42,338 nucleotides of DNA, from the IMG/VR virus record IMGVR_UViG_3300009360_000004; one strand, written 5' to 3'. The notes beneath the pieces were generated by a model that saw nothing but the letters and a program-made list of their open reading frames with translations, had not been told where the DNA came from and did no database searches. The position numbers and the translations under genes were made by a program. Origin of the DNA: a virus. Within the stretch, counting starts at the first letter, position 1, and each line of letters begins with the position of its first letter. This document shows positions 2,187-27,643 of this stretch, one piece after another.

Positions 2187-2198
2187 AGGAGGGATACT

Positions 2199-3696: not shown

Positions 3697-3742
3697 CTCG
3701 TCTTACCGCATAATGACGTAAAGTGTAAAAAAAACAAACGAA

Positions 3743-3766
3743 GCAGCCTACAATAGGCTGTTTTTG
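3743..3766 (+). terminator. Rho-independent terminator immediately downstream of the TR
   Basis: cagccta-caa-taggctg hairpin followed by ttttt. Confidence 0.55.
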
Positions 3767-3809
3767 TTTATTAACGCAAATATCTTGAACCTCTACCGGA
3801 GGTGAATCT

Positions 3810-5148: not shown

Positions 5149-5167
5149 CACTCAGGGAGGGGATAAC

Positions 5168-6253: not shown

Positions 6254-6773
6254 TCTCAAAGAGATGATGAAGGATCCCGGCAAGAAGGGATACTTCAGAT
6301 CTCACGGATACTCGGAAATCAAGGTCACGCGCATGAACGAAGAGGGCGAGATGGTCGTTGAGTATCCGAGAATTGAAATCTATCCTCTCGGGGATCACCC
6401 TGTGCTGAAACAATATCAAGATAAGTTCCCCGTTCCCGAGGCCCCAAAAACGATGCGGCTCATAAACAAGAACAACGGGAAAGAGTTCATCGACGAAGGG
6501 CTCTCGATCGAGCAGGCGAAGAACGACCCGAACTATGCCTGGGGCATGGTATATGACTACACCGACGGAGAATACCGCAAAGCAGTCGAGAAGCGAAGCA
6601 GCGATATCTCGATACTCATGATCATGATCTGTCTCGATATGGTCGAGGAGTTCGGGATCGAGAAGATAGAAGAGTTTCAGGAGGCTCTCAAAGATCTGGG
6701 CTTCACCGCAAATCAGCTCAACAAAATCGGGAGTGATATCAAGGCGCTGGATTTTTTGCCCAGCAAGAGCTAG
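6207..6773 (+). CDS. Tail assembly chaperone (gpG-like), upstream partner of a -1 frameshift pair
   Basis: 188 aa ORF immediately upstream of the tape measure gene, TTG start after aaaggaggg RBS; run of six T (6752-6757) near its 3-prime end; the -1 frame is open from 6737 to 7018. Confidence 0.55.
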   Translation: MSNKPKTDVQKAEKFNLKEMMKDPGKKGYFRSHGYSEIKVTRMNEEGEMVVEYPRIEIYPLGDHPVLKQYQDKFPVPEAPKTMRLINKNNGKEFIDEGLSIEQAKNDPNYAWGMVYDYTDGEYRKAVEKRSSDISILMIMICLDMVEEFGIEKIEEFQEALKDLGFTANQLNKIGSDIKALDFLPSKS

Positions 6774-7018
6774 AATACCGGGTACGTGACTGGTATGACT
6801 GGGACAGATTCGAGTACGAAGAGGAGTATGTCCCTGAAGCTCTGAAAGTGATGCTCTGCATACAGAAGTTTGGCCTCACGCTCGAGGAGTGGAGAGACCT
6901 GAAACGAGAGGACCAGCTGGTCTATCTCTACGGAATGACGGGAATCTCGATGCTCGAAAGGCGCGAAGCGGAGAGGGCAAAACAGGCAAGCCAGAATAGA
7001 GGGAGCGTTCTTGATTGA
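6752..7018 (+). other. Putative -1 programmed frameshift site (T TTT TTG) and gpT-like extension ORF
   Basis: Slippery heptamer at 6752-6758 in the zero frame of the chaperone; the -1 frame has no stop from 6737 to TGA 7016-7018 and no good start of its own; classic G/GT arrangement before a tape measure gene. Confidence 0.45.
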
Positions 7019-7036
7019 GCGCTCCTTTCTTTTGGA

Positions 7037-10000
7037 GTGATGACTATGGCTTTCGAAGGACTGAATTTTGATGTTGGCCTGAACTCGAGGCCGTTCACAG
7101 ACGGAATCAAGACGATGCAGACTCAGGCTGCCTCGTTTGATAATACAATCAAGAATATTGGCAGAACGCTTATGGGAGTCTTCGGGACCGTCTCTGTCGT
7201 CGCCACACTGAAGAAGTCTATCGAGTTGTGGGGCGAGCAGGAGCAAGCGATGATGAAACTCTCCATCGCCGCGCAGAGGTTCACGAGAGACGCGCAGGGT
7301 ACATACGACAGGGTCACAAAACTGTCGGGCAATCTCCAGCACCTCACGGGCATAGGGAACGAGACGTACCAATCCGTCGCGGCTCTGGGCCTCTCGCTCG
7401 GAATCACGGAGGAGAAGATCGAGAACGCCACGACCGCGGCGGCCCTCCTCTCGCAGGTGACGGGGATGGATCTGAACAGCGCCATGAAGAACCTGGCAAA
7501 GACTCAGGCGGGATTGACGGGTGAACTTGGAGAAGCTCTCCCGTTTCTCAGAGAACTGACGCAAGAACAATTGAAGAGTGGTGCAGCAATCGACCTCGTG
7601 ATTCAGAAGTATGACGGCTTTGCCGAGCAGCTTTCAGGCACAACGCAGGTGGCGATGAAGAGATTCTGGTCCGCGCTTGGAGATGTCGGGGAGGTCCTGG
7701 GCAAGTCGTTCAACCCCTTGATTCAAAAAGCCGCTGACTGGATGGAAGGCTTCAGCTCGAAGATCGAGAAACCGACCGACATTCTCAAGACACTAAAAGA
7801 CACGATCAAGGCAGGATACGAAGAACTCGGGCCGTTCGGCAAGGCTGTTGTAGGTGTAGGTGCTGCGTTCCTGACGCTCAAGGTTGCTGGCACTGCATGG
7901 AGCTTGCTCTCACAGATAGTTGTGGCTGGTGGTCATCTGATTGTAGGCGTGTTCAAGACGATATTCTCGTGGCCCACACTCTTAATTGCTGGTTTGTACA
8001 CCCTTCGTGTTGCATGGGATCACGACTGGTTCGGGATTCAGGGGACGGTTGAACACGTTTGGAAAGTGATTGAGCCTATATTTATAAAACTCAAAGACGG
8101 TCTCGTCTCAGCCTCCACATGGGCTATATCTCTGGTTTGGGAAGGCGTGAAGTGGGCTGGAGAAAAGATAGCCGTCACATACGAAACTATCAAAGACTGG
8201 GTGCTCGAAGAGCTTGCACTTGGGAAGTCCCCGCTTGAGATCGTCGTTGATGCCGCAAAGATTGCGGGCGGTGTTGTCTGGGATGGTCTTACATGGGTAG
8301 GAGAAAAAATCGCGCTAGGTACGCAAATAGTCTTTGACTGGGTAAAATCTCAATTTGGAGATGAAATAGAGGTTGTAATCAATGCAGCTAAAGTCTTCGG
8401 TGGTATGGTTTGGAAAGGGCTCAAATGGGCCGGAGAGAAAGCAATAGTTACTGCACAGATGATTTATGATTTTGCTCTTAAATATGTACCGCTTGGTATT
8501 GAGACTGTTATCAACGTTGCATCAGTGTTTGGTTCGGTGATTTGGTCCGGCTTAAAATGGATAGGTGAAAAAGCAGTTAATCTTGCGGTTCTTATCAAAG
8601 ACTTTGCAGAAAGTGAAATAGATACAGGCTTTGAACAAACAATACAGATTGCAAAAGTCTTCGGCTCTATCATATGGTCTGGTCTCAAGTGGGTTGGAGA
8701 AAAGATAGTTCTCGGTATCAAAGTGATAGAAGGTTGGGTGAGAGATCAACTTGATCTCCCAGAAACCGCAACGCTCCCTGAAATCTTCCTTGATATGGTC
8801 AGAGTAGTTGGCACGGCAGCGTGGGATGGCTTGAAATGGGTAGGCCAGAAGGTTGCTATTGGTGCCAAAGAAGTCTATGATTGGGCTTCCGAAGGGCTAG
8901 AAACAGGCTTTGAACTCACAATCGAAGTTGCTAAACTGTTTGGCGGGGTAGCCTGGCAAGGGTTGGTAAAACTCGGTGAATGGTCATATGATGTTGCTGT
9001 GTGGGCTAAGGACAATGTCCTCCCTGCTGTGATTGAGACTACGGTTGAAGTTGGAAAGGTAATCGGTGGCGTTAGCTGGCTAGGTCTCAAATGGGTAGGT
9101 TCACAGATTGCGATAGGTTTTGACACTCTCAGAAACTGGGTCTATTCGGAGCTTGGCCTTGACAAGTATGGAGCGACATCAAATATCCTGATCGAAGTTG
9201 CCAAAGTCTTCGGAGGTCTAGGCTGGCTCGGTTTGAAATGGACCGGAGAAACGATAATTCTCGGATACGAAGCGCTCAAGAAGTGGACTGAAGAGCAGCT
9301 AGGCACCACACCGGTTGACATCATTCTCAATGTTGCGAAAGTAACAGGCACGGCAATCTGGGAAGGTGTGAAGTGGATAGACGACAAACTCCCAAAGATT
9401 GATCTCGGTGCTGACGATGAACAGAAAGTAGATCAGGGCATCGTGGATGTAGTTGTGAGTGCGATAGCTAACATTGCATCGTGGCAGTGGAGGGGCTTTG
9501 TCTGGCTCACTGAGAAGGCTTCATTCGGGCTCGACTGGCTCGCAGATCAGATCCGACCGAAAATAAATGTTGAAGTAAACGGAGACGATAACTCGGGTTT
9601 TGATATTGGAGATATAGGAGTATTCGCAAAGGGAGTCGCGAAGGTATTCTCAATGAAGTGGGAAGCCGTCAAGTGGCTCTGGACGAAAGTCACACAGAGC
9701 ACTTTCATTGAGGACCTGAAAAACAGAATAAAGAAATCATCGGGCATAGATGATGAGGTCGAAGTCACCTGGAAAGACTTGTTAGTCCGGGGCTTCGGCT
9801 CTATTGGCTCTGCCGCGTGGGATGGTCTTACATGGTTTGCGGAAGGTCCGGTACATACATTTGCCGACTGGGTACGAAAGCAGATCGGTATGAGCGAAGC
9901 CGGAGAGATGAAAGTAAACCTCGGGGATGACATTAAAGTGATCCTCTCGGGTGCAGTCTCTGGTGCGACTTGGCTAGTTGATTGGGTCAAACAAGGGATA

Positions 10001-12346
10001 GGGGCCGCAACCGAATGGCTTCAAGATGTAGGAGCAGTCCTTCGTAGGGCTGTGGAAGGCGTAGAAATGAGCGCAGAGGATATAAAACTCTATGAAACCA
10101 CGGCTTCGTTTGGCGTAAAATTGGGTGAGTTCATAGGTGCTGGAATCAAAGCGGGCCTCAATCTTCTTGACATAATTCAGAGTGCGCTTGCTGGAGTAAT
10201 TGCAGAAATGACAGGCTCAAAAGAAGTTGGCCAAGTTGCTGGGACTGCAATTCCTTTGTTTTTCACTGCAAAGTGGCTCATGACTCCAATTGCTACACTT
10301 ACCCCATTTCTTGTTGCTGCAATGGGTTTCGCGGGATTGAAGCCTCTCACTTTCGGGACGTTCGGTGTGATGGTTGCGTTAAAAGTTGCGCAGGATCTTT
10401 CAACAGGCGAGGCCGAGTGGCAGGACATAGGGGCAAGGTTCGTTGCCGCCCTTGCCGTGGGTATGGGGATAGGAGCGTTTCTCGGCAGTCCGAGCGCGGG
10501 GGTGCTGACATTCGAGCTTCTCATGCTCGTCAAAGTTGAAAAGTTTGTTGACAGCATAGGAAATGTTGTGAAAGATCTTGTGGACGCTGTCCTGTTCCCT
10601 GAATTCGTCGATCTTCCTGTATCTGAGAAGATGGAGAAGACTATCGGCGCACTTGAAAAGCTCGATCAGACTCTTGACAGACCCGCAGACAATCTTGCAA
10701 CGTGGCTCATCACTGTGGATGAAGCACTCGGAAATTTTTACAATACATTCCCGACGAAAGTCGAACTCAATCAGATGGGCGAACTTGAACAGAGCTACTA
10801 TATGGCCGTGCTCGAATATGCTCATGCCCTTGAGGCGTCATCAAATGCGATACTCGATGCAGCAGATGATCTTGCAGCAACGGCTCAAATGATCGAGAAC
10901 ATGAGACAGATAGTTGTGCCGATACCTGGGAAAGCAGAAGGCGGTTACATCTCAGGCCCGGGCGGTCCTAAAGAGGATAGAATACCCGCCCTACTCTCGA
11001 ACGGTGAGTTCGTAGTCAATGCGAAGTCAACCGAAAAGTGGCTACCGTTCTTGAAAGCAATCAATGCTCAAGGCTTTGCAGACGGTGGAATAGCTCGGTT
11101 TGCCACAGGCACGGCAACGAAGATAGACGTTGGCAGTATTGGTGGTGGTCCGCTCACATGGTGGGATACAATTCTAAACACCCTTATGAGTGTGGTCGGA
11201 GACTATGCCGAGACCGCAAAGAAAGACTTCGGGATGATTAAGAACGTACTCGGAGACTTGCTCAGAACAATAGGTCTTGACATCGACGCGCCGCTAGACA
11301 ATCTGAACAAACTGCAAAGTGAGCTTGACGGTCTGACTCTTTCTACGAGCGATACAGGTGATACAGTAGAAGACTTCATGACCGCCATGTTCAGGGGATA
11401 TCGCAAAATCAATCAAATCTCTGAGGTTCTCAGTGAAGGCAAGATAGAGAACGTCAATAGACAGCTTGCGTTCCTTGATACTGCGATGAACGATCTTGAA
11501 AAACAGTTCATGGAAGGAACCATCCAGCTCGGAGAGTACACGGAAAGAATGACATATCTCAAGAATTTGACAGACAGTTTCTCTGACTCTCTCGGAGACC
11601 TCAAGAAGAAGATTGAACGCAGCTCGATAGTCGGTGACTCATCCGAGATATTCAAGGTTGACGAGAACACCGGCGAGCTGGTCTCTGTATTTGCAAAACT
11701 GAGGCCGGGCATGGAAGGACTCACAGATGTTGTGGGCAATTTAGCCACAGCGGGTGAAATGTTTGCCATGAGTCTGTTGAATCAGGTCGTGAACCTCGAA
11801 GCTATCAACATGCTCCTGAATCCGATCTCAACGATTCTCACAGGTGTGATGGAGATACTAGGTCCGATCATCAACCTCTTGAAACCTCTCGGCGACGCGC
11901 TGGTCAGCATAGGCAGAGTCTTCGCCCTGACGTTCAATCTCTTCGGTCAGGGCCTCCTGGTTCTCCAACCGTTCTTCAAGGCTCTAGGCTGGCTCGGTGC
12001 TACGATCTCGTATATCGCGGACCAGATAGTCCTGTTCGTCGATGGAATTTTCACCTGGTTAAGCACTCTGCCGTTCATAGGTGGTCTGTTCAGTCCTCTC
12101 CTAACAGAGGATCAGAGGCAGAGCATGAAGCGCACCATCCCGGAGAGGATGGAAGATATCGAGCTTCCACAGTCCACGACAGGGCAGGTCTTCCAGGCAG
12201 GGAGTTCCCAGCACATCACGAACAACTACCACTTCGAGTTCAGGGGAAACGACATTCTCACAGAAGACGACGAAAGCGCCCGACGGTTCGCAGATCTCAT
12301 CTACAAGAACCTTCGCGATCGCGGCGTTCAGTTGCAGGTAGGGTGA
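7037..12346 (+). CDS. Tail tape measure protein
   Basis: 1769 aa ORF (ATG at 7040 or 7046 more likely than GTG 7037); largest gene, after the chaperone pair; N-terminal coiled coil, hydrophobic central segments, at least ten tandem ~45 aa repeats carrying W-x-G-L-K-W-x-G-E-K. Confidence 0.85.
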   Translation: MMTMAFEGLNFDVGLNSRPFTDGIKTMQTQAASFDNTIKNIGRTLMGVFGTVSVVATLKKSIELWGEQEQAMMKLSIAAQRFTRDAQGTYDRVTKLSGNLQHLTGIGNETYQSVAALGLSLGITEEKIENATTAAALLSQVTGMDLNSAMKNLAKTQAGLTGELGEALPFLRELTQEQLKSGAAIDLVIQKYDGFAEQLSGTTQVAMKRFWSALGDVGEVLGKSFNPLIQKAADWMEGFSSKIEKPTDILKTLKDTIKAGYEELGPFGKAVVGVGAAFLTLKVAGTAWSLLSQIVVAGGHLIVGVFKTIFSWPTLLIAGLYTLRVAWDHDWFGIQGTVEHVWKVIEPIFIKLKDGLVSASTWAISLVWEGVKWAGEKIAVTYETIKDWVLEELALGKSPLEIVVDAAKIAGGVVWDGLTWVGEKIALGTQIVFDWVKSQFGDEIEVVINAAKVFGGMVWKGLKWAGEKAIVTAQMIYDFALKYVPLGIETVINVASVFGSVIWSGLKWIGEKAVNLAVLIKDFAESEIDTGFEQTIQIAKVFGSIIWSGLKWVGEKIVLGIKVIEGWVRDQLDLPETATLPEIFLDMVRVVGTAAWDGLKWVGQKVAIGAKEVYDWASEGLETGFELTIEVAKLFGGVAWQGLVKLGEWSYDVAVWAKDNVLPAVIETTVEVGKVIGGVSWLGLKWVGSQIAIGFDTLRNWVYSELGLDKYGATSNILIEVAKVFGGLGWLGLKWTGETIILGYEALKKWTEEQLGTTPVDIILNVAKVTGTAIWEGVKWIDDKLPKIDLGADDEQKVDQGIVDVVVSAIANIASWQWRGFVWLTEKASFGLDWLADQIRPKINVEVNGDDNSGFDIGDIGVFAKGVAKVFSMKWEAVKWLWTKVTQSTFIEDLKNRIKKSSGIDDEVEVTWKDLLVRGFGSIGSAAWDGLTWFAEGPVHTFADWVRKQIGMSEAGEMKVNLGDDIKVILSGAVSGATWLVDWVKQGIGAATEWLQDVGAVLRRAVEGVEMSAEDIKLYETTASFGVKLGEFIGAGIKAGLNLLDIIQSALAGVIAEMTGSKEVGQVAGTAIPLFFTAKWLMTPIATLTPFLVAAMGFAGLKPLTFGTFGVMVALKVAQDLSTGEAEWQDIGARFVAALAVGMGIGAFLGSPSAGVLTFELLMLVKVEKFVDSIGNVVKDLVDAVLFPEFVDLPVSEKMEKTIGALEKLDQTLDRPADNLATWLITVDEALGNFYNTFPTKVELNQMGELEQSYYMAVLEYAHALEASSNAILDAADDLAATAQMIENMRQIVVPIPGKAEGGYISGPGGPKEDRIPALLSNGEFVVNAKSTEKWLPFLKAINAQGFADGGIARFATGTATKIDVGSIGGGPLTWWDTILNTLMSVVGDYAETAKKDFGMIKNVLGDLLRTIGLDIDAPLDNLNKLQSELDGLTLSTSDTGDTVEDFMTAMFRGYRKINQISEVLSEGKIENVNRQLAFLDTAMNDLEKQFMEGTIQLGEYTERMTYLKNLTDSFSDSLGDLKKKIERSSIVGDSSEIFKVDENTGELVSVFAKLRPGMEGLTDVVGNLATAGEMFAMSLLNQVVNLEAINMLLNPISTILTGVMEILGPIINLLKPLGDALVSIGRVFALTFNLFGQGLLVLQPFFKALGWLGATISYIADQIVLFVDGIFTWLSTLPFIGGLFSPLLTEDQRQSMKRTIPERMEDIELPQSTTGQVFQAGSSQHITNNYHFEFRGNDILTEDDESARRFADLIYKNLRDRGVQLQVG

Positions 12347-12350
12347 TAGT

Positions 12351-12698
12351 ATGACAGTTGACATAGGATCTCTCAGTTTCACGGTGTACCCGAAGAAATA
12401 CAAGCACCCATACAGAACCAGAGTGATCGAGCCGGTGGAGGTCATAAACATTGCGCCCGACGGTTCGGCATATCACTATTGTGACGGCACGGTGAAGAGA
12501 TACAAAATACCTCTCTTCTTCACCGAGTCGGACAGAACCACGCTGGAATCATACAGGCAGACCGCGGCGACTTTGAAGATAGACTCGGAGTCTGCCGTGA
12601 ATGTGAAACTGATCGGGAACTACGAGTACAAAGAAAAGTGGATCAAAGGCGTGGCAATGTACGAAGAAACGCTTGAGTTCCTGGAGGTGGCCACATGA
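12351..12698 (+). CDS. Hypothetical tail protein (distal tail protein position)
   Basis: 115 aa ORF directly after the tape measure gene, overlapping the next gene by 4 nt. Confidence 0.4.
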   Translation: MTVDIGSLSFTVYPKKYKHPYRTRVIEPVEVINIAPDGSAYHYCDGTVKRYKIPLFFTESDRTTLESYRQTAATLKIDSESAVNVKLIGNYEYKEKWIKGVAMYEETLEFLEVAT

Positions 12699-15586
12699 GT
12701 TTTCAGGTCAACCTCAATAGTGTGGACATATCGGCCCGGATAGTCTCCGGGCCGGTTGTTCATAAGAACGACGTCCTTCACGGTCGGATCTCTCCGAACG
12801 AGTGCAGCTTCGATATAGACAACACGAATCTTGCCTATACCATCTCGAACCTCGACATTGAAGGCCAGCTCGTGGAAGTGTGGGTAGATTCAACGAAACA
12901 GTTTACAGGCTACGCAGAAAAGCCGACTCTCACGAGAAATGGTCGAACAGTCACAATCAAAGCGTTCGACAAGATGAAGCAGCTTCAGAAGCTCAAGTGC
13001 GACGACAAGATGTTCATCGGATCGACCGCGGACGACATTCTGACGTGGCTCGTGGAGACTTGCGGAGGCATAGGTTCGGGCAGTCATAGCCTCGACAGCA
13101 TACTCGTTGCGACCTCCGGCGGCACGACTCAGGCGGTCGTGGGGTACGCGTTGTATTCGGTCAAAGACAAACTCACGGATAGGCTTCAGGAGATCGTCGA
13201 TTCGTGCGGCGGGTCTATGTGGTTCGACGAGTCGGGGGTCCTCCAATTTCGGGCAGGATTCGCGGCCACCTGGTCAACGTCCACAGTCGGCACGATCACA
13301 GTCTCGAAACTGAAAGACATAGACTCTCTTCAATGGTTGCCGAGCGAGGGCGATCGAGTCATTGTCAAATCGAAGAACCGCAGTGTCAAGACCGAGAAAG
13401 AGCCCGTCTTCACCTGGTCCGGCGTGGTCACAAGTGACGGACTGCCGACCGGCAAGGACGAGAACGGCAACGCTATCACCGACGACCAGTGGCGCGCGAA
13501 GTTCGACTCTCCGGCCATTGAGATAGATGACTACGCAACCGTTGACGCGGCCAAAGAATTCGACTCCGGGCTGACACTCAATCAGACCGTGTACGACGCG
13601 AACTTCGACTCCGGCGTTCTGAAGTACCCGGACTTCATGTATCTCCAGATAGACAACAGCTCGGGCGTTGACAAGAACGTCACGAAGCTGGTTATCGAGG
13701 GGAAGCCGGTCGTGGAGAACTATCTGGAAGTGATTCACGACGCGGGTAGTTTCAACACGGAGAGGGAGGTCTCGAACGATCTGATCTCCTCGAAGGTCTG
13801 GGCTTCGTCTCTGGCGAAGTGGTTGTACGAAAACGGCAACGACAAGTTCGAAGCAGTCGTGCCGCTCGCGGACTTCTCACTTGGCTTGAGCTGGAGCGTC
13901 GGAGACAAGGTTAACATCGTCGATGCTTCGACGGGTCTTTCACACAGAGCGTGGGTCAGGGCGATAGACATAGACTACCGCAACAGGGATCTGACGGTCA
14001 CGCTCAGGAGCGACAGAGCCTCCGGGTTCGAGTACACGGCGCCTCCAGGTTCGATCACCGGTCCGGGAACGAATATACCCTACGAACCACAGTTCGGTGA
14101 CGGTTCGGCTCCGGCAACTCCTACGGGGCTCGCTCTCACGGCCTTCGCGGTCAAGAATAGAAGCTATGTCAAGGCCACGTGGGACGCGAACACCGAGGAG
14201 GACCTGATCGGGTACGAGGTGCAATGGAACTACGACAATGGTGCAACTTGGTACAACGCCGGGTTCGTGAACAACAACGAGCTGGTGATCGAGGTCACAA
14301 ATCAGTGGGTGTCGGGGACTTCATACACTGTTTACGTTCAGGTCAGGGCTGTGGATATCGAGAATCTTCGTTCCGACTGGTCGACTTCTGACAGCGAGAC
14401 TATTCTCTACGACACCACGGCACCGGCAATCCCCGGGAGCATCTCGGCGGTCGGTGGAGTCGGTTTGATTCACGTCGATTGGTCGCAGGTGTATGACTCG
14501 GACGTGGAGCAATACTATCTTTATCGAAAGGTTCAGACCTCGGACGGCGGCGCTTTCAGTGCAAATTGGACGTTCCTTGCCGCCGTGAAAGGCACTGACT
14601 TCGTAGACAAAGACGTCGAGTATCATATAACAGACTCGGACGACCCGAACTATCCGCAATGGCGAAAATATATCTACGCCGTCAGGGCGACCGATTATGC
14701 GAATAATGCTTCTGATCGCAGGGAAATGTCAACTGCAAACGCTGTCTATGCGACTCAAGCCACGGGCGATGACATAGCCGTAAACTCAATCACGGCAAAC
14801 CACATCAATGTGGCTCTGGATCTTTCGGTCGGTCGTCAGATAAAGGTCGGTTCTCAGATACAGATAGGAGCTGACGTTGGCCCTGTCGGCGATACGTTCG
14901 ACGGAATCTACGTAACAGACGGCACGAACTACGTCAGGCTCTCTGCCGATGAGGTCAAAATCAAAGGCGATTTAGTTATTGGCGCAGGAGACAACGTTAT
15001 AGAGTTCGAGGACTCGAACATCTCCCTGGGGGACACCACGACGGAAGTGGCAGGAAACCTGACGAGGTACTATCTTCAGTTCAAAGCCCTGACAGGGTGG
15101 GGGAGCGACCCTGACCGTCAGGTGTTGGCTGTCGGGTACGCCCTGAACACTACCGACGACGAGTACCATTCGTATCTGGAACTTCAGAATCGTTTCGACA
15201 ACTACTCGAATATGGCGAGATTTAACATCTATGCTAAGACCGGCTCGAATCTTTCCAGTGGTGCGCACGTCCAGCTAGGTTTCTACGCATACAACAATTC
15301 GGGGGCCAATCTTGCCGGAGGGATTCTCTCGTTCATCCGTGAGGCCGAGGCCTCTTCTAAAGGCTGGTTCTATACCGACTCGGCATTGGAGCAGGTTATC
15401 CCGTACTGGTATGGGACGAGCGGTTCGCCCACGGCTAAACTCCCGTCTTTCAGCACTTGGACGGACGCTGAAGATTGCCCGGCATCGAACATCTGGATAT
15501 GGAGAAATTCGGGGGATAGCAAATACTATCTCTATATTCGAGATGTGAATGGAGATGTTCTGAAATGTGAAATGACTTTGACATAG
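12695..15586 (+). CDS. Tail fibre / host-recognition protein with fibronectin type III-like repeats
   Basis: 963 aa; repeated beta-rich segments with the W...Y...V.A.D motif pattern of FN3 domains (e.g. KATWDANTEEDLIGYEVQWNYDNG...YTVYVQVRAVD); position after tape measure protein. Confidence 0.6.
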   Translation: MSFQVNLNSVDISARIVSGPVVHKNDVLHGRISPNECSFDIDNTNLAYTISNLDIEGQLVEVWVDSTKQFTGYAEKPTLTRNGRTVTIKAFDKMKQLQKLKCDDKMFIGSTADDILTWLVETCGGIGSGSHSLDSILVATSGGTTQAVVGYALYSVKDKLTDRLQEIVDSCGGSMWFDESGVLQFRAGFAATWSTSTVGTITVSKLKDIDSLQWLPSEGDRVIVKSKNRSVKTEKEPVFTWSGVVTSDGLPTGKDENGNAITDDQWRAKFDSPAIEIDDYATVDAAKEFDSGLTLNQTVYDANFDSGVLKYPDFMYLQIDNSSGVDKNVTKLVIEGKPVVENYLEVIHDAGSFNTEREVSNDLISSKVWASSLAKWLYENGNDKFEAVVPLADFSLGLSWSVGDKVNIVDASTGLSHRAWVRAIDIDYRNRDLTVTLRSDRASGFEYTAPPGSITGPGTNIPYEPQFGDGSAPATPTGLALTAFAVKNRSYVKATWDANTEEDLIGYEVQWNYDNGATWYNAGFVNNNELVIEVTNQWVSGTSYTVYVQVRAVDIENLRSDWSTSDSETILYDTTAPAIPGSISAVGGVGLIHVDWSQVYDSDVEQYYLYRKVQTSDGGAFSANWTFLAAVKGTDFVDKDVEYHITDSDDPNYPQWRKYIYAVRATDYANNASDRREMSTANAVYATQATGDDIAVNSITANHINVALDLSVGRQIKVGSQIQIGADVGPVGDTFDGIYVTDGTNYVRLSADEVKIKGDLVIGAGDNVIEFEDSNISLGDTTTEVAGNLTRYYLQFKALTGWGSDPDRQVLAVGYALNTTDDEYHSYLELQNRFDNYSNMARFNIYAKTGSNLSSGAHVQLGFYAYNNSGANLAGGILSFIREAEASSKGWFYTDSALEQVIPYWYGTSGSPTAKLPSFSTWTDAEDCPASNIWIWRNSGDSKYYLYIRDVNGDVLKCEMTLT

Positions 15587-15823: not shown

Positions 15824-16249
15824 ATGGAGAGCTTGTACCACAACCCTATTTTAACAGTCTTTCTTTCCTTGCTGGCAATTATCATAATCGGCAACTCCGG
15901 GCTCCAACTCTATATGTTGAACGCTCCACCAGTCGTGATTGAGAAAGAGTTCGCCCATAACGGTGCCGCCGGTTGTCTTCACTGGGCGTTGCCTATCATC
16001 TATATCAACCCTACCGACCCTCCCACGACGAGCAGGGTACTCAGACACGAATATCAACACTATATGCAGAAAGCGATTCTCTCTCCGCTTGTTTTCAACA
16101 TAGCTTACTGTCTCGAAGACGCGTTGCACGGCTACGACGGCAACTGGTTCGAGCTTGACGCATACAGGGCGGAAGGTGATGGATTGGAGTTCAAGGTGTT
16201 CGGCTGGAACTTGAAAGGAATGATGGAGGTGAGACCGTGGACAAAGTAG
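15824..16249 (+). CDS. Membrane-anchored protein with HExxH motif (putative zinc metallopeptidase)
   Basis: 141 aa; N-terminal hydrophobic helix (ILTVFLSLLAIIIIG) and HEYQH motif; RBS tggaggt before ATG. Confidence 0.45.
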   Translation: MESLYHNPILTVFLSLLAIIIIGNSGLQLYMLNAPPVVIEKEFAHNGAAGCLHWALPIIYINPTDPPTTSRVLRHEYQHYMQKAILSPLVFNIAYCLEDALHGYDGNWFELDAYRAEGDGLEFKVFGWNLKGMMEVRPWTK

Positions 16250-16464
16250 TGCATGCAGGATTCGGATTCTTCTTCGCGCTCATATTTGGATTCATAATGC
16301 GCAACGCATGGCTTGGGTTCGCGATAGCTGTTCTAGCCGGGGCCACGAAAGAGGTTGTCTGGGACTGGTGGCTCAAGAAAGGGACGCCTGAGCTGTTAGA
16401 CTTCGTGGCGACACTCATCGGCGCGGCTCTAGGGTTTGCTATGCTGTTGCTCGTGCGCTTCTAG
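16237..16464 (+). CDS. Small multi-pass membrane protein (holin candidate)
   Basis: 75 aa, GTG start after ggaggt RBS; two to three hydrophobic helices (FGFFFALIFGFIM, LGFAIAVLAGA, FVATLIGAALGFAMLLLV). Confidence 0.45.
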   Translation: MDKVVHAGFGFFFALIFGFIMRNAWLGFAIAVLAGATKEVVWDWWLKKGTPELLDFVATLIGAALGFAMLLLVRF

Positions 16465-16474
16465 GGAGGTTGAT

Positions 16475-17599
16475 ATGAACAATCAATCGTGGACGGAATA
16501 CGAAGAAAAGAAAGCTGTCGAACTGCGAAACCGCGGGCTCACGTACCCGGAGATCGCGGCCGAGTTCCAGAAAGACGAACTTTGCCAGCCCAGGACCTCG
16601 GAGAGCATACGGCTCAGGACCTATGCCCTGACGGGGAAGACGCGTATCAAACCGAAACACAAAGAAAAACCAGCCTCAAAACCCACGGAAGAACCAGCCT
16701 CGAAGATCATCGACATACTCAAGCAACGCCGGGTAGCCACGCTGACCGAGCTGGCCGACGAGCTGGACACTTCTCCCCGTCGCACGAAAGAGGGCGTGCA
16801 GTCTCTCATCGCCGAGGGGAAGCGGCTGGAGCTGAAAGGCGAGACTGTGGAATTCATGGCCCCGAAAGGCGGAAAGACGACGACCTTGAAATCCGAGGAC
16901 GACGGCTGGTGCCGGTTCGGGCTGGTGTCGGACACGCATCTCGGTTCGAAGAAACAACAGATATCCGCGCTCAGGGACTTCTATCGTGAACTGAAGGCGC
17001 GCGGCATCACGAAGGCTTTCCACTCGGGCGACTGGGTGGCCGGGAAAAACATCTATCGTGGGCAGGAATACGAGCTTTTCTTGCACAGCATGAGAGAGCA
17101 GAAAGAGTATTTGATCCAGGAATACCCGGACGAGGGGATCGAGACAATCGGGATAGTGGGAAACCACGACTTTGCCTGGTCCGCGCTCGCGGGAGATTCG
17201 ATACTCGAAATGGCCGCGATGGTCCGCCCCGATATCAAGATCGTGGGTGAGTACCAGGCATTCGTCGAATGGAACGGCTTCAGGTTCTCGCTGCACCATC
17301 CAGACGGTGGGCAAGCATACGCGATCAGTTACAAACTTCAGAAACTCGTGGAGTCTTTCACAGCCGAGAACCTCCCCGACTTCGTGGTGATGGGCCACTT
17401 CCACCAAAAGGAATACGTGACCATCCGCGGTGTCGAGTGTTTCCAGCCAGGTTGCTTCGAGGCGCAGTCGCCGTACTTGATACGAAAGAACCTCCACCCA
17501 GCTATTGGAGGCTGGATTGTGGAGGCTCAGCGAAAAGAAAACCGCACACATATCATAGCAGAGTTTCTCAGTTATAAACCACTTGAACGGGACTGGTGA
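16475..17599 (+). CDS. HTH domain fused to calcineurin-like metallophosphoesterase
   Basis: 374 aa from ATG 16475 (RBS gggaggt). N-terminal HTH-like segments (LTYPEIAAEF; ATLTELADEL); C-terminal MPP motifs GLVSDTHLG, HSGDWVAG, GIVGNHDF, GHFHQ. Confidence 0.6.
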   Translation: MNNQSWTEYEEKKAVELRNRGLTYPEIAAEFQKDELCQPRTSESIRLRTYALTGKTRIKPKHKEKPASKPTEEPASKIIDILKQRRVATLTELADELDTSPRRTKEGVQSLIAEGKRLELKGETVEFMAPKGGKTTTLKSEDDGWCRFGLVSDTHLGSKKQQISALRDFYRELKARGITKAFHSGDWVAGKNIYRGQEYELFLHSMREQKEYLIQEYPDEGIETIGIVGNHDFAWSALAGDSILEMAAMVRPDIKIVGEYQAFVEWNGFRFSLHHPDGGQAYAISYKLQKLVESFTAENLPDFVVMGHFHQKEYVTIRGVECFQPGCFEAQSPYLIRKNLHPAIGGWIVEAQRKENRTHIIAEFLSYKPLERDW

Positions 17600-17886
17600 T
17601 AGACATGGCCGATGAATGCAAATATGCACACGATATTGAGCGAATGAAAACCGATACAACTGTTCTGTTGACAAAAATGGATGATGTTCAAAAGGATGTA
17701 GACAAGCTCGGCAATAAGATAGACAAACTCTCGGATGACTTGCATAACGGCCTAGTTGAAGAAAAGGTAGAAAAGGCCATAGATGCGAGAAACGGTAGAC
17801 TGCTGATGAAAATAATCTTTGCCGTAGTCAGCTCCACTTTCGGATTTGAGCTCGTTGCAAAATGGTTAAGCGGGTTGTTCAAATGA
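17596..17886 (+). CDS. Coiled-coil protein with C-terminal transmembrane helix (holin/spanin-like candidate)
   Basis: 96 aa ORF (GTG 17596 or ATG 17605); C-terminal hydrophobic segment IIFAVVSSTFGFELVAKWL. Confidence 0.4.
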   Translation: MIDMADECKYAHDIERMKTDTTVLLTKMDDVQKDVDKLGNKIDKLSDDLHNGLVEEKVEKAIDARNGRLLMKIIFAVVSSTFGFELVAKWLSGLFK

Positions 17887-17955
17887 AGTTTTTTCGTAGT
17901 TCTGCTCATAACTTTCCTAGCAGCTCAAGTTTCAACAATGGAGGTTGATACTCCA

Positions 17956-18420
17956 ATGGGCATAAAACTCGACTTCATCGAGAAGTACCGCAGCGACGCT
18001 ATTCTCGTCGGGCTGGCCTGTGACTTTCCTCCGATCATTCTTCTCGTGCAGGCCGCGCTCGAGACAGGCTGGGGGAGGCATATGGTCGGGAACAATCTGT
18101 TCGGTATCAAGGACGTTCCCTGGATTCCCGGGAGTGTGGAAAAAGAAACGACTGAATTTGATACTGTATGGAAAACTGAGACACACAGCTTTGAAACGTT
18201 CGACTCTCCTATCCAGTGCATGGTTGCGTATGTAGTAAAAATACGTACAGAACCAAGATATAGTACAGCCTGGAAATTCAGACATGAACCCACAACGTAC
18301 TTCGAAGAACTCCAGAAAGCAGGCTATGCCACAGATCCAGACTACGCTAAAAAACTTGTACGCATTTTTGATACATTCCCCGAATGGGAGGTGGATGATG
18401 CCAGCACCCAAAACGATTAA
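17956..18420 (+). CDS. Endolysin, glucosaminidase (N-acetylglucosaminidase-like) domain
   Basis: ATG 17956 preceded by ggaggt RBS (track ORF starts at 17938); motif VQAALETGWGRHMVGNNLFGIK typical of the glucosaminidase/FlgJ-type lysozyme family. Confidence 0.65.
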   Translation: MGIKLDFIEKYRSDAILVGLACDFPPIILLVQAALETGWGRHMVGNNLFGIKDVPWIPGSVEKETTEFDTVWKTETHSFETFDSPIQCMVAYVVKIRTEPRYSTAWKFRHEPTTYFEELQKAGYATDPDYAKKLVRIFDTFPEWEVDDASTQND

Positions 18421-18736
18421 GCTCGGAGCTTTCGAGTGGGGAGTCATGTTCAACGAAATCACGCAGGAGTGCGCCGAAGAATTCGACAACGAACCCCAGA
18501 ACGTTCTGGGATTCACGGACAGAAGAAACCTGGTCATGTACATCGACAAAACGCTCACACCGCAGGTGTTGAAGAGCACCTTCTTGCACGAGCTGGTCCA
18601 CGCGATGGGCGACTCGTTTGGACTCGGTTTCGAGGATACCGAGAATGAGGGTGCCGTCAACAAAATCGCGAATGCTTTCTACAACTTCATCAAACAAAAT
18701 CCAAAAGCCGTTGAGTGGCTGATAAAGGAGGAATAG
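18395..18736 (+). CDS. Small HExxH protein (putative zinc metallopeptidase)
   Basis: 113 aa from ATG 18395 (RBS gggaggtgg), overlapping the endolysin 3-prime end; motif FLHELVHAMGDSFGLGFED. Confidence 0.45.
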   Translation: MMPAPKTIKLGAFEWGVMFNEITQECAEEFDNEPQNVLGFTDRRNLVMYIDKTLTPQVLKSTFLHELVHAMGDSFGLGFEDTENEGAVNKIANAFYNFIKQNPKAVEWLIKEE

Positions 18737-19060: not shown

Positions 19061-19090
19061 CGCCCCCTGGCGAAAGCTGGGGGGCTTTTC
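19061..19090 (+). terminator. Rho-independent terminator with GAAA tetraloop
   Basis: gccccctggc-gaaa-gctggggggc hairpin (about 10 bp stem) followed by ttttctt. Confidence 0.65.
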
Positions 19091-19953: not shown

Positions 19954-20229
19954 ATGACAAAGAGAGAACTGATTTCCATTGTTAGAAAAGAAAGAGAGAA
20001 CTGGGACAACTGCGATCTTGAACCCGCTATCGTGGCGGCACTTGACAGAGACAACTTGTGGGATGCTGCTAGAAAGCTGATCCCTGACGAGTGGCTCGCC
20101 GAAAACGGCGATCTGAACAGGGAAGAAGTGGAGAAAATGGTAGAAACCTACGGTGACGAAAACAGTTTCGATCGCTGGGCAGTCATCCTGTGGCTTTTCT
20201 CGGAGTTTGGCGAAGAGTACGACGCTTAA
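19954..20229 (+). CDS. Hypothetical acidic protein
   Basis: ATG 19954 after aaagggggag RBS (track ORF starts at 19903); ends convergent with the minus-strand gene. Confidence 0.4.
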   Translation: MTKRELISIVRKERENWDNCDLEPAIVAALDRDNLWDAARKLIPDEWLAENGDLNREEVEKMVETYGDENSFDRWAVILWLFSEFGEEYDA

Positions 20230-20849
20230 TCAGTTTCAGAATCATCGGGCGGCTTCGGTCGCCCTTTTATTTTTTCCTGGTAGTATTTTTTGTGATAGCC
20301 AGGGTTCTTTTCTTTGAATTGTTTCTGATACTCCCGGAATTTCTCTTTGTTCTCCCGATAATATTCTCTCATATACTGCCGACGCGCTTCGAGAAACGCT
20401 TCCGGGTTTTCGGCTTTTTTCTTTTGCGCCCAGCGAACGGCGAAGTACCCATGTATCGCGTTGTAGAGTTCAGGATTCTCAGCTCTCAATTTTCTGTCGC
20501 GCTTTCTGGTTCTCGCCTGTTCTTGTTCTCTATGCTCTGCATACCATCTCCGCCCACTCGCACGTTTTCGCTCAGCTCTGCAATCTTCGCACAGCCAGAT
20601 ACGAAAATATTTTGACATTTCAGAGACGTGGAGAATTTTTCCGCAATCTACACAGGCCCCATAGTCAGGTACTTCGCGTTTTTTTCTATGCTTTGCACGC
20701 CATTTGCGCGCGCTGACTCGGTTGCGCTCGGCCCGGCAGTCCTTGCATATCCAGATGCGAAATTGTTTCGGCATTTCGGAGACGTGGAGATTTTTTCCAC
20801 AGTCCATACAGGTTCCATATTCTTGCGTTTCTCGTTTTTTCTTGGCCAT
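20226..20849 (-). CDS. Tandem zinc-ribbon protein with basic C-terminal region (putative regulator)
   Basis: 207 aa, the only convincing minus-strand gene; two ~48 aa copies of YG.C.DCGK.LHVSEM.K.FRIW.C.DCRAER (C-x2-C...C-x2-C); TATAAT-type hexamer 6 nt upstream of the ATG and no Shine-Dalgarno. Confidence 0.6.
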   Translation of the reverse strand: MAKKKRETQEYGTCMDCGKNLHVSEMPKQFRIWICKDCRAERNRVSARKWRAKHRKKREVPDYGACVDCGKILHVSEMSKYFRIWLCEDCRAERKRASGRRWYAEHREQEQARTRKRDRKLRAENPELYNAIHGYFAVRWAQKKKAENPEAFLEARRQYMREYYRENKEKFREYQKQFKEKNPGYHKKYYQEKIKGRPKPPDDSETD

Positions 20850-25966: not shown

Positions 25967-27643
25967 ATGACCGAGTTTCTGCAAGAACTTTGGGGCTTCA
26001 AGCCGGAGAATTTGTTCGTGCTGGTCTGGCAGAAAAGAGGAAAGAAATCGAACTGGTTTCAGGATATAGGAAAGATCGAGAGCTTCGCCCAGAAGAACAG
26101 GGATCTGTCGGACCTGTACATCGGCGTGGGTTTGAGCCCGAAAGACTACGGATCGAAGAACCGCTGCCCCGCGAACGAGGTATCGGGGATCGCTGGATTT
26201 TGGGCCGACATTGACATTCTCGACGAGGTTCACAAGAAGGAGAACCTCCCTGCCTCGCTCGAAGAGGCAAAGAGTCTTTTCCCCGAACCGCCCACGTGCG
26301 TAATCCATTCGGGGCATGGCATACAGGCGTGGTGGTTGTTCAGAGAACCGTGGATCTTCGAGAACGAAGACGAAAGATTCAAGGCTCAGGCGATGTGTCA
26401 AGCCTGGCACCACAGGCTGTTGGAAAGGGCGACCGCCCGGGGCTGGGTGATCGACGCGACATTCGACCTGTCGAGGATTCTGAGAATCCCCGGGACGAAG
26501 AATCTCAAAGATCCGAAAGACGTTCGAGACGTGGAGCTGATCGAGCAAGAATGGACTACGAGGTACGAACCGGAAGATCTGGTCCCCGCGATCGTGGTCG
26601 AGAAGAAGGAAAGAGTCGAGACGGAGATCGGGAGGATCGCACTGCGGCCCGACGCCGCGCCGCCCACGGAGAAGTGGGAGGCCCTGATGAGCGCCGAGCC
26701 GAAATTCAAGAAATCGTGGAACCACGACAGGAAGGATCTCTCAGACCAGTCACCCAGTTCTTACGATTTTAGTCTTGCTTCGATCGCGTTTCAGGCCGAC
26801 TGGACGGACCAGGAGATCGTGGATCTTCTCATCGCCCACAGAAGGAAACACAAGGCAGATCTGAAGTTGCGAAAGGACTACTATCTCAGGACGCTTGAAA
26901 AGTTGAAGCTGGAAAGGAAGTACCAGGAAAAAATCAACGAGGCTCTGGAAACGCACAGCAAAAGAGCCACGGAAATAAAGGTAGCGCTCGCGAACGCCAA
27001 AGTCACATTGATCGAAGCGGAGAACAACGGCGCGAGCCTTGAGCGTGAAGAGATACTCAAAGAGCTGGAAAAGATTCTCGGCGTAAGAATCGAGAAGCTC
27101 CAGAAGTTCCTCTCCGAGCCTCCGTCGTACCGGCTTCAGACTCTGGCCACGAATATCAGCATCGAATCGGCCGGAGACATCATCTCGCAAACGAAATTCA
27201 GAATCAAGATCGCCGACGCTACCGGGGTCGTGATTCGACCGTTCAAGAAGGAAGAATGGTCGGACATAGCACAATTGATCCTAAACGCCTGCGAAGAGAT
27301 CGAGGTCGGTGAGGAGTCCACAGAGGCAGGATTCATAAACAGCCTACTAAGAAAATACCTGCACAGGAACACGAACTTAGTTTCGTTGCAGTCGGTGGAA
27401 GAGTACGGAGAGAAGATCCAGGAAGAGGGCTTTCCCTTTTCCCTAGAGGGCTACACGTACATTTCACTGTCGGAGATGCGAAAATTCATCCGCGTAACCA
27501 GCGGTGACGTACTAACGACCAAGCAGGTGGGTAAGTTGTTGAGAATAGCGGGGTGGAGCAACTGTGTAATCAACGTAAAGGTCGATGAAAAGAAGACTTC
27601 ACGCTCTCTGTTCAAGAAAAAAATCGAGCCTTCTGAAGTTTAA
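25967..27643 (+). CDS. Primase-polymerase (archaeo-eukaryotic primase superfamily) replication protein
   Basis: 558 aa; AEP-type motifs DIDILD (DxD), SGHGIQAWW (sGxGxH), RIPGTKN. Confidence 0.65.
   Translation: MTEFLQELWGFKPENLFVLVWQKRGKKSNWFQDIGKIESFAQKNRDLSDLYIGVGLSPKDYGSKNRCPANEVSGIAGFWADIDILDEVHKKENLPASLEEAKSLFPEPPTCVIHSGHGIQAWWLFREPWIFENEDERFKAQAMCQAWHHRLLERATARGWVIDATFDLSRILRIPGTKNLKDPKDVRDVELIEQEWTTRYEPEDLVPAIVVEKKERVETEIGRIALRPDAAPPTEKWEALMSAEPKFKKSWNHDRKDLSDQSPSSYDFSLASIAFQADWTDQEIVDLLIAHRRKHKADLKLRKDYYLRTLEKLKLERKYQEKINEALETHSKRATEIKVALANAKVTLIEAENNGASLEREEILKELEKILGVRIEKLQKFLSEPPSYRLQTLATNISIESAGDIISQTKFRIKIADATGVVIRPFKKEEWSDIAQLILNACEEIEVGEESTEAGFINSLLRKYLHRNTNLVSLQSVEEYGEKIQEEGFPFSLEGYTYISLSEMRKFIRVTSGDVLTTKQVGKLLRIAGWSNCVINVKVDEKKTSRSLFKKKIEPSEV

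Follow-up and report, generated by a model that had tools for sequence, protein, structure and literature searches.

A Viral Helix-Turn-Helix Metallophosphoesterase Related to the DP1 Subunit of Archaeal PolD and Encoded Among Late Genes

The gene and its setting in a late operon

The window, i.e., the whole stretch of viral DNA analysed here (42,338 nucleotides, IMG/VR record IMGVR_UViG_3300009360_000004), encodes a metallophosphoesterase (MPE) that carries a helix-turn-helix (HTH) and a winged helix-turn-helix (wHTH) at its N-terminus (Table 1; residue numbers refer to this protein). The ORF on the + strand extends from 16436 (TTG) or 16475 (ATG) to 17599. The ribosome binding site was graded as strong, and the TGA stop codon shares the sequence GTGA (17596–17599) with the GTG start codon of the downstream gene. 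Since a ribosome binding site precedes the ATG and the stop codon overlaps the next start, the coordinates given in the initial annotation (16475–17599) are right. The ORF is confirmed as a real gene and no chance ORF, because a search of 5.8 billion proteins returned 132 homologs, the family is present in at least 570 IMG/VR stretches, and the relatives form 1,681 clusters at 50% identity (E ≤ 1e-30). The protein is a member of a large uncharacterised viral family.

Table 1. Features of the MPE gene, its product and its surroundings, with positions in the window.
Feature	Position	Strand	Basis or remark
141-aa protein, N-terminal TM segment, HEYQH (HExxH-like) motif	15824..16249	+	hydropathy, sequence
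75-aa membrane protein, 2–3 TM segments, holin-like; immediate upstream neighbour	16237..16464	+	hydropathy
Shine-Dalgarno sequence AGGGAGG	16463..16469	+	5 nt before ATG 16475; overlaps TAG stop of upstream gene
HTH-wHTH-MPE gene, 374 aa	16475..17599	+	ORF list, Pfam, homologs, AlphaFold2 model
N-terminal three-helix HTH, aa 8–53	16496..16633	+	model helices 8–19, 24–33, 42–53
Lys/Pro/Glu-rich flexible linker, aa 54–73	16634..16693	+	pLDDT <50 for aa 58–71; gappy in alignment
Winged helix-turn-helix, aa 74–127	16694..16855	+	helices 74–85, 90–97, 101–113; strands 87–89, 118–121, 124–127
Calcineurin-like MPE core, DP1-like, aa 145–366	16907..17572	+	
MPE motif I, D153-T-H155, metal ligands	16931..16939	+	66-sequence alignment
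MPE motif II, G185-D186 with DP1-type extension GDWVAGKNIYRGQ	17027..17065	+	alignments to DP1 chains
MPE motif III, G229-N230-H231-D232	17159..17170	+	66-sequence alignment
MPE motif IV, H275	17297..17299	+	invariant
Family-specific motif S285-Y-K-L-Q-K290	17327..17344	+	S285, Q289 invariant; Y286 at least 90%
MPE motif V, G307-H308-F-H310	17393..17404	+	66-sequence alignment; H308, H310 invariant
F-E-A-Q-S-P segment, matching DP1 'W-Q-A-Q-T-E-F' after motif V	17456..17473	+	DP1 alignments
96-aa coiled-coil protein, C-terminal TM segment; immediate downstream neighbour	17596..17886	+	start overlaps MPE stop codon
Endolysin, glucosaminidase family	17938..18420	+	Pfam PF01832, E 5.8e-25; PHROG endolysin families
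Strong intrinsic-terminator-like hairpin	19062..19085	+	10 bp, 8 GC pairs, T-run; closes the late operon holding the MPE gene

The MPE gene is embedded in a late operon and, as read from the sequence, is translationally coupled on both sides. A promoter or terminator of its own, the signature of a moron, was sought and not found in the regions flanking it. As stated in the initial annotation, it lies between genes for small membrane proteins, with the endolysin gene downstream. The upstream neighbour matches phrog_35767 (E 3.9e-6), a PHROG family without function label, the coiled-coil protein gave a weak match to phrog_1193 'hemolysin' (E 1.6e-3), and no Pfam or PHROG match was obtained for the 141-aa protein. 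The suggestion that this is a place for accessory cargo does not fit the locus, because the gene lacks both a promoter and a terminator of its own, is apparently coupled on both sides, and is found at the same position in relatives of 53–60% identity. In these relatives the order tail–MPE–endolysin is retained despite a different endolysin type.

Family scans of the larger ORFs of the window detected helicases and a PrimPol-like protein besides genes for structure and lysis. The ORFs annotated in the window include no integrase, and a PADLOC search for known defence and anti-defence families gave no match for the MPE protein or four neighbours.

Domain architecture, active site and nearest relatives

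The AlphaFold2 model of the protein (mean pLDDT 92.4) has three parts, namely an HTH, a winged helix and an MPE core. The two N-terminal HTH-like segments noticed initially thus reappear in the model as a three-helix bundle and a winged helix. The first follows a Myb/SANT-like sequence pattern (W-x2-E...L...G...IA...R...R), and at its position relatives have Myb_DNA-bind_6, Sigma70_r4_2, HTH_23/29 or HTH_30. The second shows the order helix–strand–helix–helix–strand–strand of a canonical winged helix. The Pfam HTH matches of the protein itself (HTH_20, HTH_24) fall into this winged-helix region and are sub-threshold; homologs exceed the threshold with HTH_11 and HTH_24 (P0005), HTH_5 (P0024), or HTH_23 and HTH_29 (P0018).

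Residues 147–331 match Metallophos_2 (46.6 bits, cut-off 27) and Metallophos (33.1 bits, cut-off 21.5) in Pfam, and the protein has the two-layer beta-sandwich MPE fold. It belongs to the calcineurin-like metallophosphoesterase superfamily (PF00149/PF12850). No motif of the set is missing (D153-x-H155, G185-D186, G229-N230-H231-D232, H275, G307-H308-x-H310). An alignment of 66 homologs with 28–79% identity shows no variation at D153, D186, H231, H275, H308 and H310, and at least 90% of the sequences retain H155 and N230. With Pfam scores above cut-off and all eight ligands present, the complete phosphoesterase motif set reported in the initial annotation is corroborated; the loss of metal ligands on alignment, named there as grounds for rejection, was looked for in the 66 sequences, and the ligands are retained.

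The counterpart of the motif II extension in DP1 reads GDVVDGxGIYPGQ, and in this region D186 and G190 do not vary among the 66 sequences and G196 hardly does. H231 aligns with the proton-donor histidine of DP1, which is mutated in exonuclease-deficient PolD; the 6hms chain reads GNAD at this place. The role of this residue (H451) as proton donor was described for DP1 (PMC4996933). The family-specific motif around S285 is the insertion point of an intein in some relatives and is retained even in catalytically dead copies.

By every method used, the closest relative of the protein is DP1, the 3′-5′ proofreading exonuclease of PolD, followed by MJ0936 and Mre11. DP1 was matched at 2e-5 by phmmer against the PDB, at 1e-13 by the family profile against the PDB (MJ0936: 2e-4) and at 5e-15 by the NCBIfam DP1 model (YfcE: 1.8e-4), and the top 10 Foldseek matches were all DP1 (about 3e-12). 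The likeness to archaeal DP1 (PDB 5IHE, 6KNB, 8PPT) comprises the PDE core, the active catalytic residues and DP1-specific segments: beyond the five canonical motifs, GDxxxGxxIYxGQ and (A)Q(T/S) after GHxH are common to both. The best PHROG matches are nucleases ('DNA repair exonuclease', 6.6e-7; 'SbcD-like', 1.3e-5). Profile search and structure prediction, which had been proposed as checks, thus agree on an HTH, a winged helix and a complete MPE with DP1 as nearest relative. The GNHD motif had been read as more typical of Mre11/SbcD-type nucleases and cyclic-nucleotide phosphodiesterases than of PPP protein phosphatases. The nuclease side of this reading stands, with DP1, MJ0936 and Mre11 as best matches by sequence and structure, and so does the lack of PPP resemblance. 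Neither the GNHE motif nor a PPP-family profile (lambda PP type) was found in the protein.

Several features distinguish the phage protein from DP1. It has a Myb-like HTH and a winged helix instead of the DP1 N-terminal domain and the OB-fold insertion; the AlphaFold model contains only HTH, wHTH and MPE core, and no OB-fold insertion. The OB domain and the base-pocket residues of DP1 (Y415, K536, F589, V593) were described previously (PMC4996933). Because DP1 uses the OB domain for ssDNA, its absence argues against a DP1-like nuclease. Among the models for DP1 membership (NCBIfam NF003116–NF003120; COG1311), the best score was 55.4 bits for NF003118, compared to an equivalog cut-off of 445, and only the PDE part aligns. 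The SYKxQK motif gave no alignment to DP1. The phage family is viral and bacterial, whereas DP1 is archaeal and cellular, and the window encodes no DP2 partner, as no DP2-like protein appeared in the family scans of its larger ORFs. The similarity to Mre11/SbcD is clearly weaker than that to DP1. In contrast to these nucleases, the phage protein has no C-terminal capping domain and ends 8 residues past the last core strand of the model. The annotated genes of the window include no Rad50/SbcC ATPase, and such a gene does not recur next to the MPE gene in 70 related loci.

The second tier of matches is formed by MJ0936 and YfcE-type phosphodiesterases (COG0622). The MPE superfamily takes in cyclic-nucleotide phosphodiesterases and NAD+ diphosphatases, and the protein might be a small-molecule phosphodiesterase that destroys immune signals (cGAMP, cA3-6, cCMP/cUMP, gcADPR) or NAD+-related molecules. 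We consider this quite unlikely, and the analysis yielded nothing in favour of a cyclic-nucleotide phosphodiesterase. The sequence match to MJ0936/YfcE is much weaker than that to DP1 (2e-4 versus 1e-13), the TIGR00040 score (21.6 bits) is below the cut-off of 56.25, and these phosphodiesterases have neither DNA-binding domains nor DP1-type motifs. Compared to a signalling-nucleotide phosphodiesterase, a DNA-tethered nuclease is the most likely identity of the protein.

Family variants and gene position in relatives

Nearly all relatives have an N-terminal DNA-binding module, the type of which is swapped between Myb, sigma-70 region 4, HTH_23/29, HTH_30 and ArsR/MarR/HTH_11 winged helices. Such interchangeable heads would fit selection for DNA binding as such. 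Tandem fusions of the type [wHTH-MPE]x2 make up 21 of the 145 top representatives. Most of the metal ligands are missing from their first copy, the second copy is intact, and S285, Y286 and Q289 are kept in both. A dead copy joined to a live one is what a fused pseudo-dimer should look like and suggests a dimer; it is solely from these tandem fusions that we infer dimerisation. Mre11-type nucleases are dimers. In P0093 a LAGLIDADG intein is located directly before the invariant S285, and P0153, P0194 and P0263 have it at the same profile position. Inteins usually occupy conserved sites of proteins of DNA or nucleotide metabolism, and the insertion site at S285 appears to be a constrained one.

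These variants also bear on the view that the protein is mainly a transcription factor, with HTHs that bind phage promoters for late-gene or lysis-timing control and an MPE that serves as sensor or accessory enzyme module. The two bona fide DNA-binding domains (model, Pfam matches of homologs) would suit this role, as would the position of the gene directly upstream of terminase genes in about one quarter of the loci, where late activators often sit. However, the strict conservation of the catalytic residues points to enzymatic function as the selected trait, the intein is inserted into the catalytic domain, an intact active copy is kept in every tandem fusion, and it is the N-terminal DNA-binding modules that vary. 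Moreover, the MPE gene is located here at the end of the late operon and not ahead of it. A mainly regulatory function is therefore highly doubtful.

Over the wider family the gene can follow tail or lysis genes, precede the terminase, come after capsid genes or lie among early ones, and therefore genomic context pins down no process. No conserved partner gene recurred in 90 loci with crude ORF calls, in all-against-all BLAST clustering on 70 dereplicated loci, or in a Pfam scan of the flanking proteins. Certain tendencies were observed: TerL is encoded downstream in about 15 related loci, giant tail proteins are encoded upstream in many, and in several relatives the MPE gene is located at module boundaries, beside integrases or sugar-modification genes. 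Within ±10 kb, homologs of the PrimPol and the Dda-like helicase of the window were found in no related locus, and a homolog of its SNF2-like helicase in five.

In the window and in close relatives, the MPE gene lies within the lysis cassette; among 64 other loci, about 10 encode an endolysin at most four genes upstream. Teichoic acids can be cleaved by MPEs of the PhoD type. These observations would allow for a lysis-associated phosphodiesterase that acts on envelope polymers (phosphodiester polymers resembling teichoic acid) or on DNA released at lysis, which we regard as extremely improbable.

Only 1 of 50,697 phage records in GenBank, that of Halorubrum virus BLv36, was found to contain a member of the family (tblastn with the full protein and the MPE core). 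It is annotated as 'hypothetical', as is every gene in its neighbourhood. Beyond BLv36, the tblastn matches in cultured phages were marginal throughout (E ≥ 0.02); they comprised an unrelated 'endonuclease subunit' of a Vibrio phage and calcineurin-like phosphoesterases of Methylophilales phages. Considering the numbers of clusters and IMG/VR stretches given above, this single record reveals a sizeable gap in phage gene annotation.

Proposed function and evolutionary implications

The reading we favour, with a probability of about 0.5, is that of a DNA-tethered, probably dimeric, two-metal-ion nuclease of the DP1/Mre11 type for late DNA processing. We infer DNA as the substrate: the Myb/SANT-like HTH and the winged helix would hold the protein on DNA, and the C-terminal DP1/Mre11-type core would cleave phosphodiester bonds. 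It would most likely trim 3′ ends, or DNA that is unpaired or branched. The enzyme would most likely act as a homodimer. Produced late, it would share a transcript with the lysis genes and be coupled to them in translation, and its most likely job late in infection would be to trim intermediates of replication or recombination prior to packaging, or to degrade host DNA, or both. Some points speak against a nuclease. The substrate of an MPE cannot be read from its motifs alone, and small-molecule phosphodiesterases of the MJ0936/YfcE type rank second as structural neighbours. An HTH domain that is fused to an enzyme can also be there for autoregulation instead of substrate targeting. Furthermore, the window encodes no DP2, Rad50/SbcC or other obvious partner, and across the family the position of the gene is variable, with no conserved partner.

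The same evidence for a nuclease would also apply to a counter-defence or take-over enzyme that attacks the DNA of the host or of competing elements, shuts down host expression and defences, and recycles nucleotides. A precedent exists in gp48 of mycobacteriophage A10ZJ24, a cluster A MPE reported to disrupt the genomic DNA of the host and to silence defence genes (PMC12287305), and the module boundaries at which the gene is located in several relatives are sites where accessory genes accumulate. However, the precedent protein is expressed early, while the MPE gene is part of a late operon beside lysis genes and has no promoter of its own. There is also no detectable sequence relation to the gp47/gp48 family (hhalign probability 27%) and no match to PADLOC or anti-defence families. 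We therefore consider a take-over function unlikely. The idea of counter-defence put forward in the initial annotation is thus conceivable by the route of a host-DNA-damaging MPE (PMC12287305), but that MPE is of a different family, the Bxb1 gp47 type.

Bxb1 gp47, a recombination directionality factor (RDF), has limited exonuclease activity and is required for replication (PMC11795197). Like the phage protein, gp47 and gp48 are stand-alone phage MPEs with a DP1/Mre11-like structure (PMC11795197, PMC12287305). In contrast, proteins of the gp47 type have 255 aa, no HTH or winged helix, are encoded in the early/replication region and are paired with a serine integrase, none of which is true here. 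The hhalign match to gp47 covered 14 columns, BLASTP gave an E value of 6.4, and only the GHxH motif is shared; gp47 was therefore kept solely as a functional analogue. With regard to a serine-integrase RDF, no cognate large serine integrase was found in the window. An MPE of a Geobacillus phage (COG1407; PMC10459684) is of a different family.

The protein is of interest for the history of DP1, since no closer relative of this PolD proofreading subunit is known than its catalytic core. PolD has been described as the sole polymerase to proofread with an MPE (PMC4996933). A viral DP1 relative without OB domain and with an apparently intact active site bears on the origin of the DP1 domain, and hence on how the inactive B-subunits of replicative polymerases in eukaryotes arose. 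It is a decidedly unlikely extension that the viral family is the closest extant relative of the DP1 phosphodiesterase domain and acts as a stand-alone, DNA-tethered exonuclease for proofreading or 3′-end trimming that serves exonuclease-less polymerases. If true, the family would provide the first proofreader of the MPE type beyond Archaea, and it would become a candidate for the source, or for a sister lineage, of the DP1/B-subunit domain found in the replicases of archaea and eukaryotes. For the biochemistry of what is probably a new type of phage nuclease, handles are offered by the interchangeable DNA-binding heads, the dead/live tandems and the intein-containing members. The only polymerase-type gene encoded by the phage here is that for the PrimPol-like enzyme.

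MPE gene and domain architecture of its product

The ORF flagged as encoding the metallophosphoesterase (MPE) protein (374 aa) is real: an RBS-like AGGGAGG (16463-16469), overlapping the stop codon of the upstream gene, precedes the ATG at 16475, the TGA stop overlaps the GTG start of the downstream gene, and Pfam MPE families match the product. In the region of aa 147-331, Metallophos_2 scores 46.6 bits (against a cut-off of 27) and Metallophos 33.1 bits (against 21.5). The MPE motif set is complete, as the initial annotation had stated, with all eight metal/catalytic residues conserved in an alignment of 66 homologous sequences (28-79% identity); six of them (D153, D186, H231, H275, H308, H310) do not vary at all, and conservation of the other two, H155 and N230, is 90% or more.

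The AlphaFold2 model built on the same alignment is confident (mean pLDDT 92.4, pTM 0.72; domains in the table). Two N-terminal HTH-like segments had been proposed for the protein. This was correct, since the model supports them and relatives score above threshold at the matching positions for HTH_11, HTH_24, HTH_5, HTH_23 and HTH_29, while the HTH matches of the window protein itself lie below the Pfam threshold. Myb_DNA-bind_6 (22.7 versus 22.9 bits), Sigma70_r4_2 (25.0 versus 25.7) and HTH_30 (25.1 versus 27) are just under the cut-off in relatives. Judged from these profiles, the putative DNA-binding head is the exchangeable part across the family and the MPE the constant part.

Features of the window and of the MPE protein (positions in nucleotides unless marked aa)
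Feature	Position	Strand	Remarks
Tail genes	1-15586
Glycosyltransferase-like gene	5168-6253	+	within tail block; phrog_13126 'beta-1,4-glycosyltransferase', 2.8e-80
Tail fibre	12695-15586		first listed gene of late operon
57-aa ORF			after tail fibre
141-aa ORF	15824-16249	+	lysis region; N-terminal TM segment, HEYQH (HExxH-like, metalloprotease-type) motif; no match in Pfam, PHROG, NCBIfam or PADLOC
75-aa ORF			2-3 TM segments; directly before MPE gene
MPE gene	16475-17599	+
Three-helix bundle	aa 8-53		model; Myb/SANT-like sequence pattern
Linker	aa 58-71		model; Lys/Pro-rich, disordered
Winged helix	aa 74-127		model; canonical
MPE core	aa 145-366		model
96-aa ORF			directly after MPE gene; coiled coil, C-terminal TM segment
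Glucosaminidase endolysin			after 96-aa ORF
M78/IrrE-like HExxH protein	18284-18736	+	follows endolysin gene, overlapping its 3' end; phrog_1233, 2.7e-19; weak Peptidase_M78
106-aa ORF			after M78-like ORF
Strong terminator	19062-19085		after 106-aa ORF
207-aa zinc-ribbon protein	20226-20849	-	duplicated CxxC...CxxC modules, basic repeat-rich tail; XPA_N-like match, 4.6e-7
Early/replication block	22.8-31 kb
PrimPol-type 'DNA polymerase/primase'	25967-27643	+	phrog_2478, 8.4e-18; flanked by SNF2-like and Dda-like helicases
Radical SAM protein	30267-31166	+	phrog_9298, 4.5e-95; early region
MazG-like pyrophosphatase	31751-32257	+	early region
130-aa RyR-domain protein	34126-34518	+	PF02026, 1.8e-14
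ParB-like nuclease/DNA methyltransferase fusion	34989-36155	+	phrog_498, 7.8e-141; directly upstream of small ORF, then TerL
TerL	36470-37684		packaging/head set
Portal	37688-39046		packaging/head set
Major head protein	40673-41515		packaging/head set

Relationship to DP1 and variants of the family

DP1, the small subunit of archaeal DNA polymerase D, is a 3'-5' proofreading exonuclease. Every comparison made (sequence, profile, NCBIfam, Foldseek) picked it out. The single sequence found DP1 in the PDB with an E value of 2e-5, and the family profile did so at about 1e-13 (next best MJ0936, 2e-4). Among NCBIfam models, the DP1 model NF003118 (5e-15) was followed by YfcE (1.8e-4). The top ten Foldseek hits in the PDB were all DP1 (about 3e-12), followed by MJ0936 (8e-9) and Mre11 (about 3e-8). 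Profile search and structure prediction, which the initial annotation had called for, place the MPE core closest to DP1, as its nearest relative. Beyond the five canonical motifs, both proteins have GDxxxGxxIYxGQ following motif II, and in both an AQ(T/S) segment comes after GHxH. Unlike DP1, the MPE protein has no OB domain; it reaches 55 bits against a DP1 equivalog cut-off of 445, and family scans of the window's larger ORFs found no gene for DP2, the catalytic subunit. Orthology to DP1 was therefore rejected. The protein falls into the nuclease clade of metallophosphoesterases, and as a kind of system it is not new. The viral family is nevertheless uncharacterised and architecturally distinct: it has HTH/wHTH heads and a SYKxQK motif of its own, lacks an OB domain and a partner such as DP2 or Rad50, and includes tandem and intein-bearing forms.

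Tandem [wHTH-MPE]x2 proteins (640-874 aa) make up 21 of the 145 top family representatives; they lie outside the window, among homologs P0121-P0265 (e.g., P0121, P0125, P0139). Their N-terminal MPE copy lacks most metal ligands, while the C-terminal copy is intact, a pattern that in sequence terms marks a fused pseudo-dimer. Because the tandem proteins look like this, single-copy members, including that of the window, probably act as homodimers. S285-Y286-Q289 (S-Y-x-x-Q) is kept in both copies, which suggests a structural, interface or substrate-binding role of SYKxQK rather than a catalytic one. In homolog P0093 a LAGLIDADG-containing intein is inserted exactly before the invariant S285 of this motif. 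A large, similar insert splits P0153, P0194 and P0263 at the same profile position, and locus L064 may carry a related insertion.

Candidate activity of the MPE protein

The initial annotation had left the choice between a nuclease and a signalling-nucleotide phosphodiesterase. For the latter, which keeps a small probability, we found no positive support; the affinity to DP1 argues for the former. The evidence fits best with a two-metal nuclease of the DP1/Mre11 type that is tethered to DNA and probably dimeric. This reading builds on the observed architecture, intact active site, DP1 affinity, operon embedding and family variants; from these we infer DNA as substrate, dimerisation and biological role. 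Tethered to DNA, probably as a dimer, and made late in infection, the protein would cut DNA ends or unpaired DNA with its two-metal core. It could thereby trim or process intermediates of replication and recombination ahead of packaging, or degrade host DNA.

Published work offers precedents for nuclease activity in stand-alone phage MPEs: Bxb1 gp47 has limited exonuclease activity and is needed for replication (PMC11795197), and disruption of the host's genomic DNA by A10ZJ24 gp48 serves counter-defence (PMC12287305). Sequence comparison detected no relatedness between the gp47/gp48 family and the window protein. Action as a regulator only, or as an envelope phosphodiesterase, is less likely than the nuclease, since catalytic residues are strictly conserved, export signals are absent, and gene placement varies across the family. 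A further reading, in which the protein is a stand-alone viral exonuclease for proofreading or trimming and sister to DP1, seems quite improbable; if true, it would matter greatly for understanding how replicative polymerases evolved.

Spread of the family and gene position

The family is large and almost wholly uncultured. A word-indexed protein search gave 132 matches, and at least 570 IMG/VR stretches carry members. Two of these, L011 and L012 (UViGs from metagenomes 3300009122 and 3300009659), have a 100% identical MPE gene and map onto the window. Clustering at 50% identity gave 4,125 clusters at E<=1e-3, 3,093 at 1e-10 and 1,681 at 1e-30. Among species-representative genomes, members occur on MAG contigs only (CPR bacteria, Bacillota, Bacteroidaceae, Planctomycetes, Myxococcales, Brocadiaceae, Woesearchaeota, Methanosarcinales). 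Only Halorubrum tailed virus BLv36, among 50,697 GenBank phage records in INPHARED, has a member, labelled hypothetical. The nearest relative in a named genome, a Kosmotoga pacifica protein (P0010, 59% identity), may point to a host lineage of Thermotogota type.

At ~42 kb, the window represents the genome of a tailed phage in circularly permuted form. The MPE gene lies towards the 3' end of the late operon, and the gene order bears out the described placement between small membrane-protein genes ahead of the endolysin. No promoter-like or terminator-like site was found on either side of it, which speaks against an autonomous moron.

Related loci (L001, L013, L014; 53-60% identity) have the gene in an equivalent late region, after large genes taken as tail genes in L001 and after large ORFs in L013, a locus that stops at the MPE gene. 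The endolysin that follows in L001 and L014, after 1-2 small genes, is of the SLT type and not, as in the window, a glucosaminidase. No partner gene is conserved among the 70 dereplicated loci compared. In about 15 loci the MPE gene precedes the terminase by a few genes, and in about 10 it lies downstream of endolysins; it also recurs downstream of very large ORFs, probably encoding tail proteins, and beside tyrosine integrases or glycosyltransferase/sugar genes. Occasionally it follows capsid genes (L022) or lies amid early genes. Other loci repeatedly have glycosyltransferase and sugar-nucleotide genes downstream of it as well.

Related loci were compared over 10 kb to either side of the MPE gene: none has a homolog of the PrimPol or the Dda-like helicase of the window, five have one of the SNF2-like helicase, and 11 have ParB/MTase homologs. 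M78-like homologs are nearby in L001, L071 and L072. The PrimPol-type gene is the sole polymerase-like gene found in the window, and no PolA, PolB, PolC or integrase was detected among its annotated genes, including the early region. The radical SAM and MazG-like genes may form a nucleotide- or DNA-modification module. The zinc-ribbon protein is encoded by one of the few minus-strand genes, and the RyR domain is now and then met in phages.
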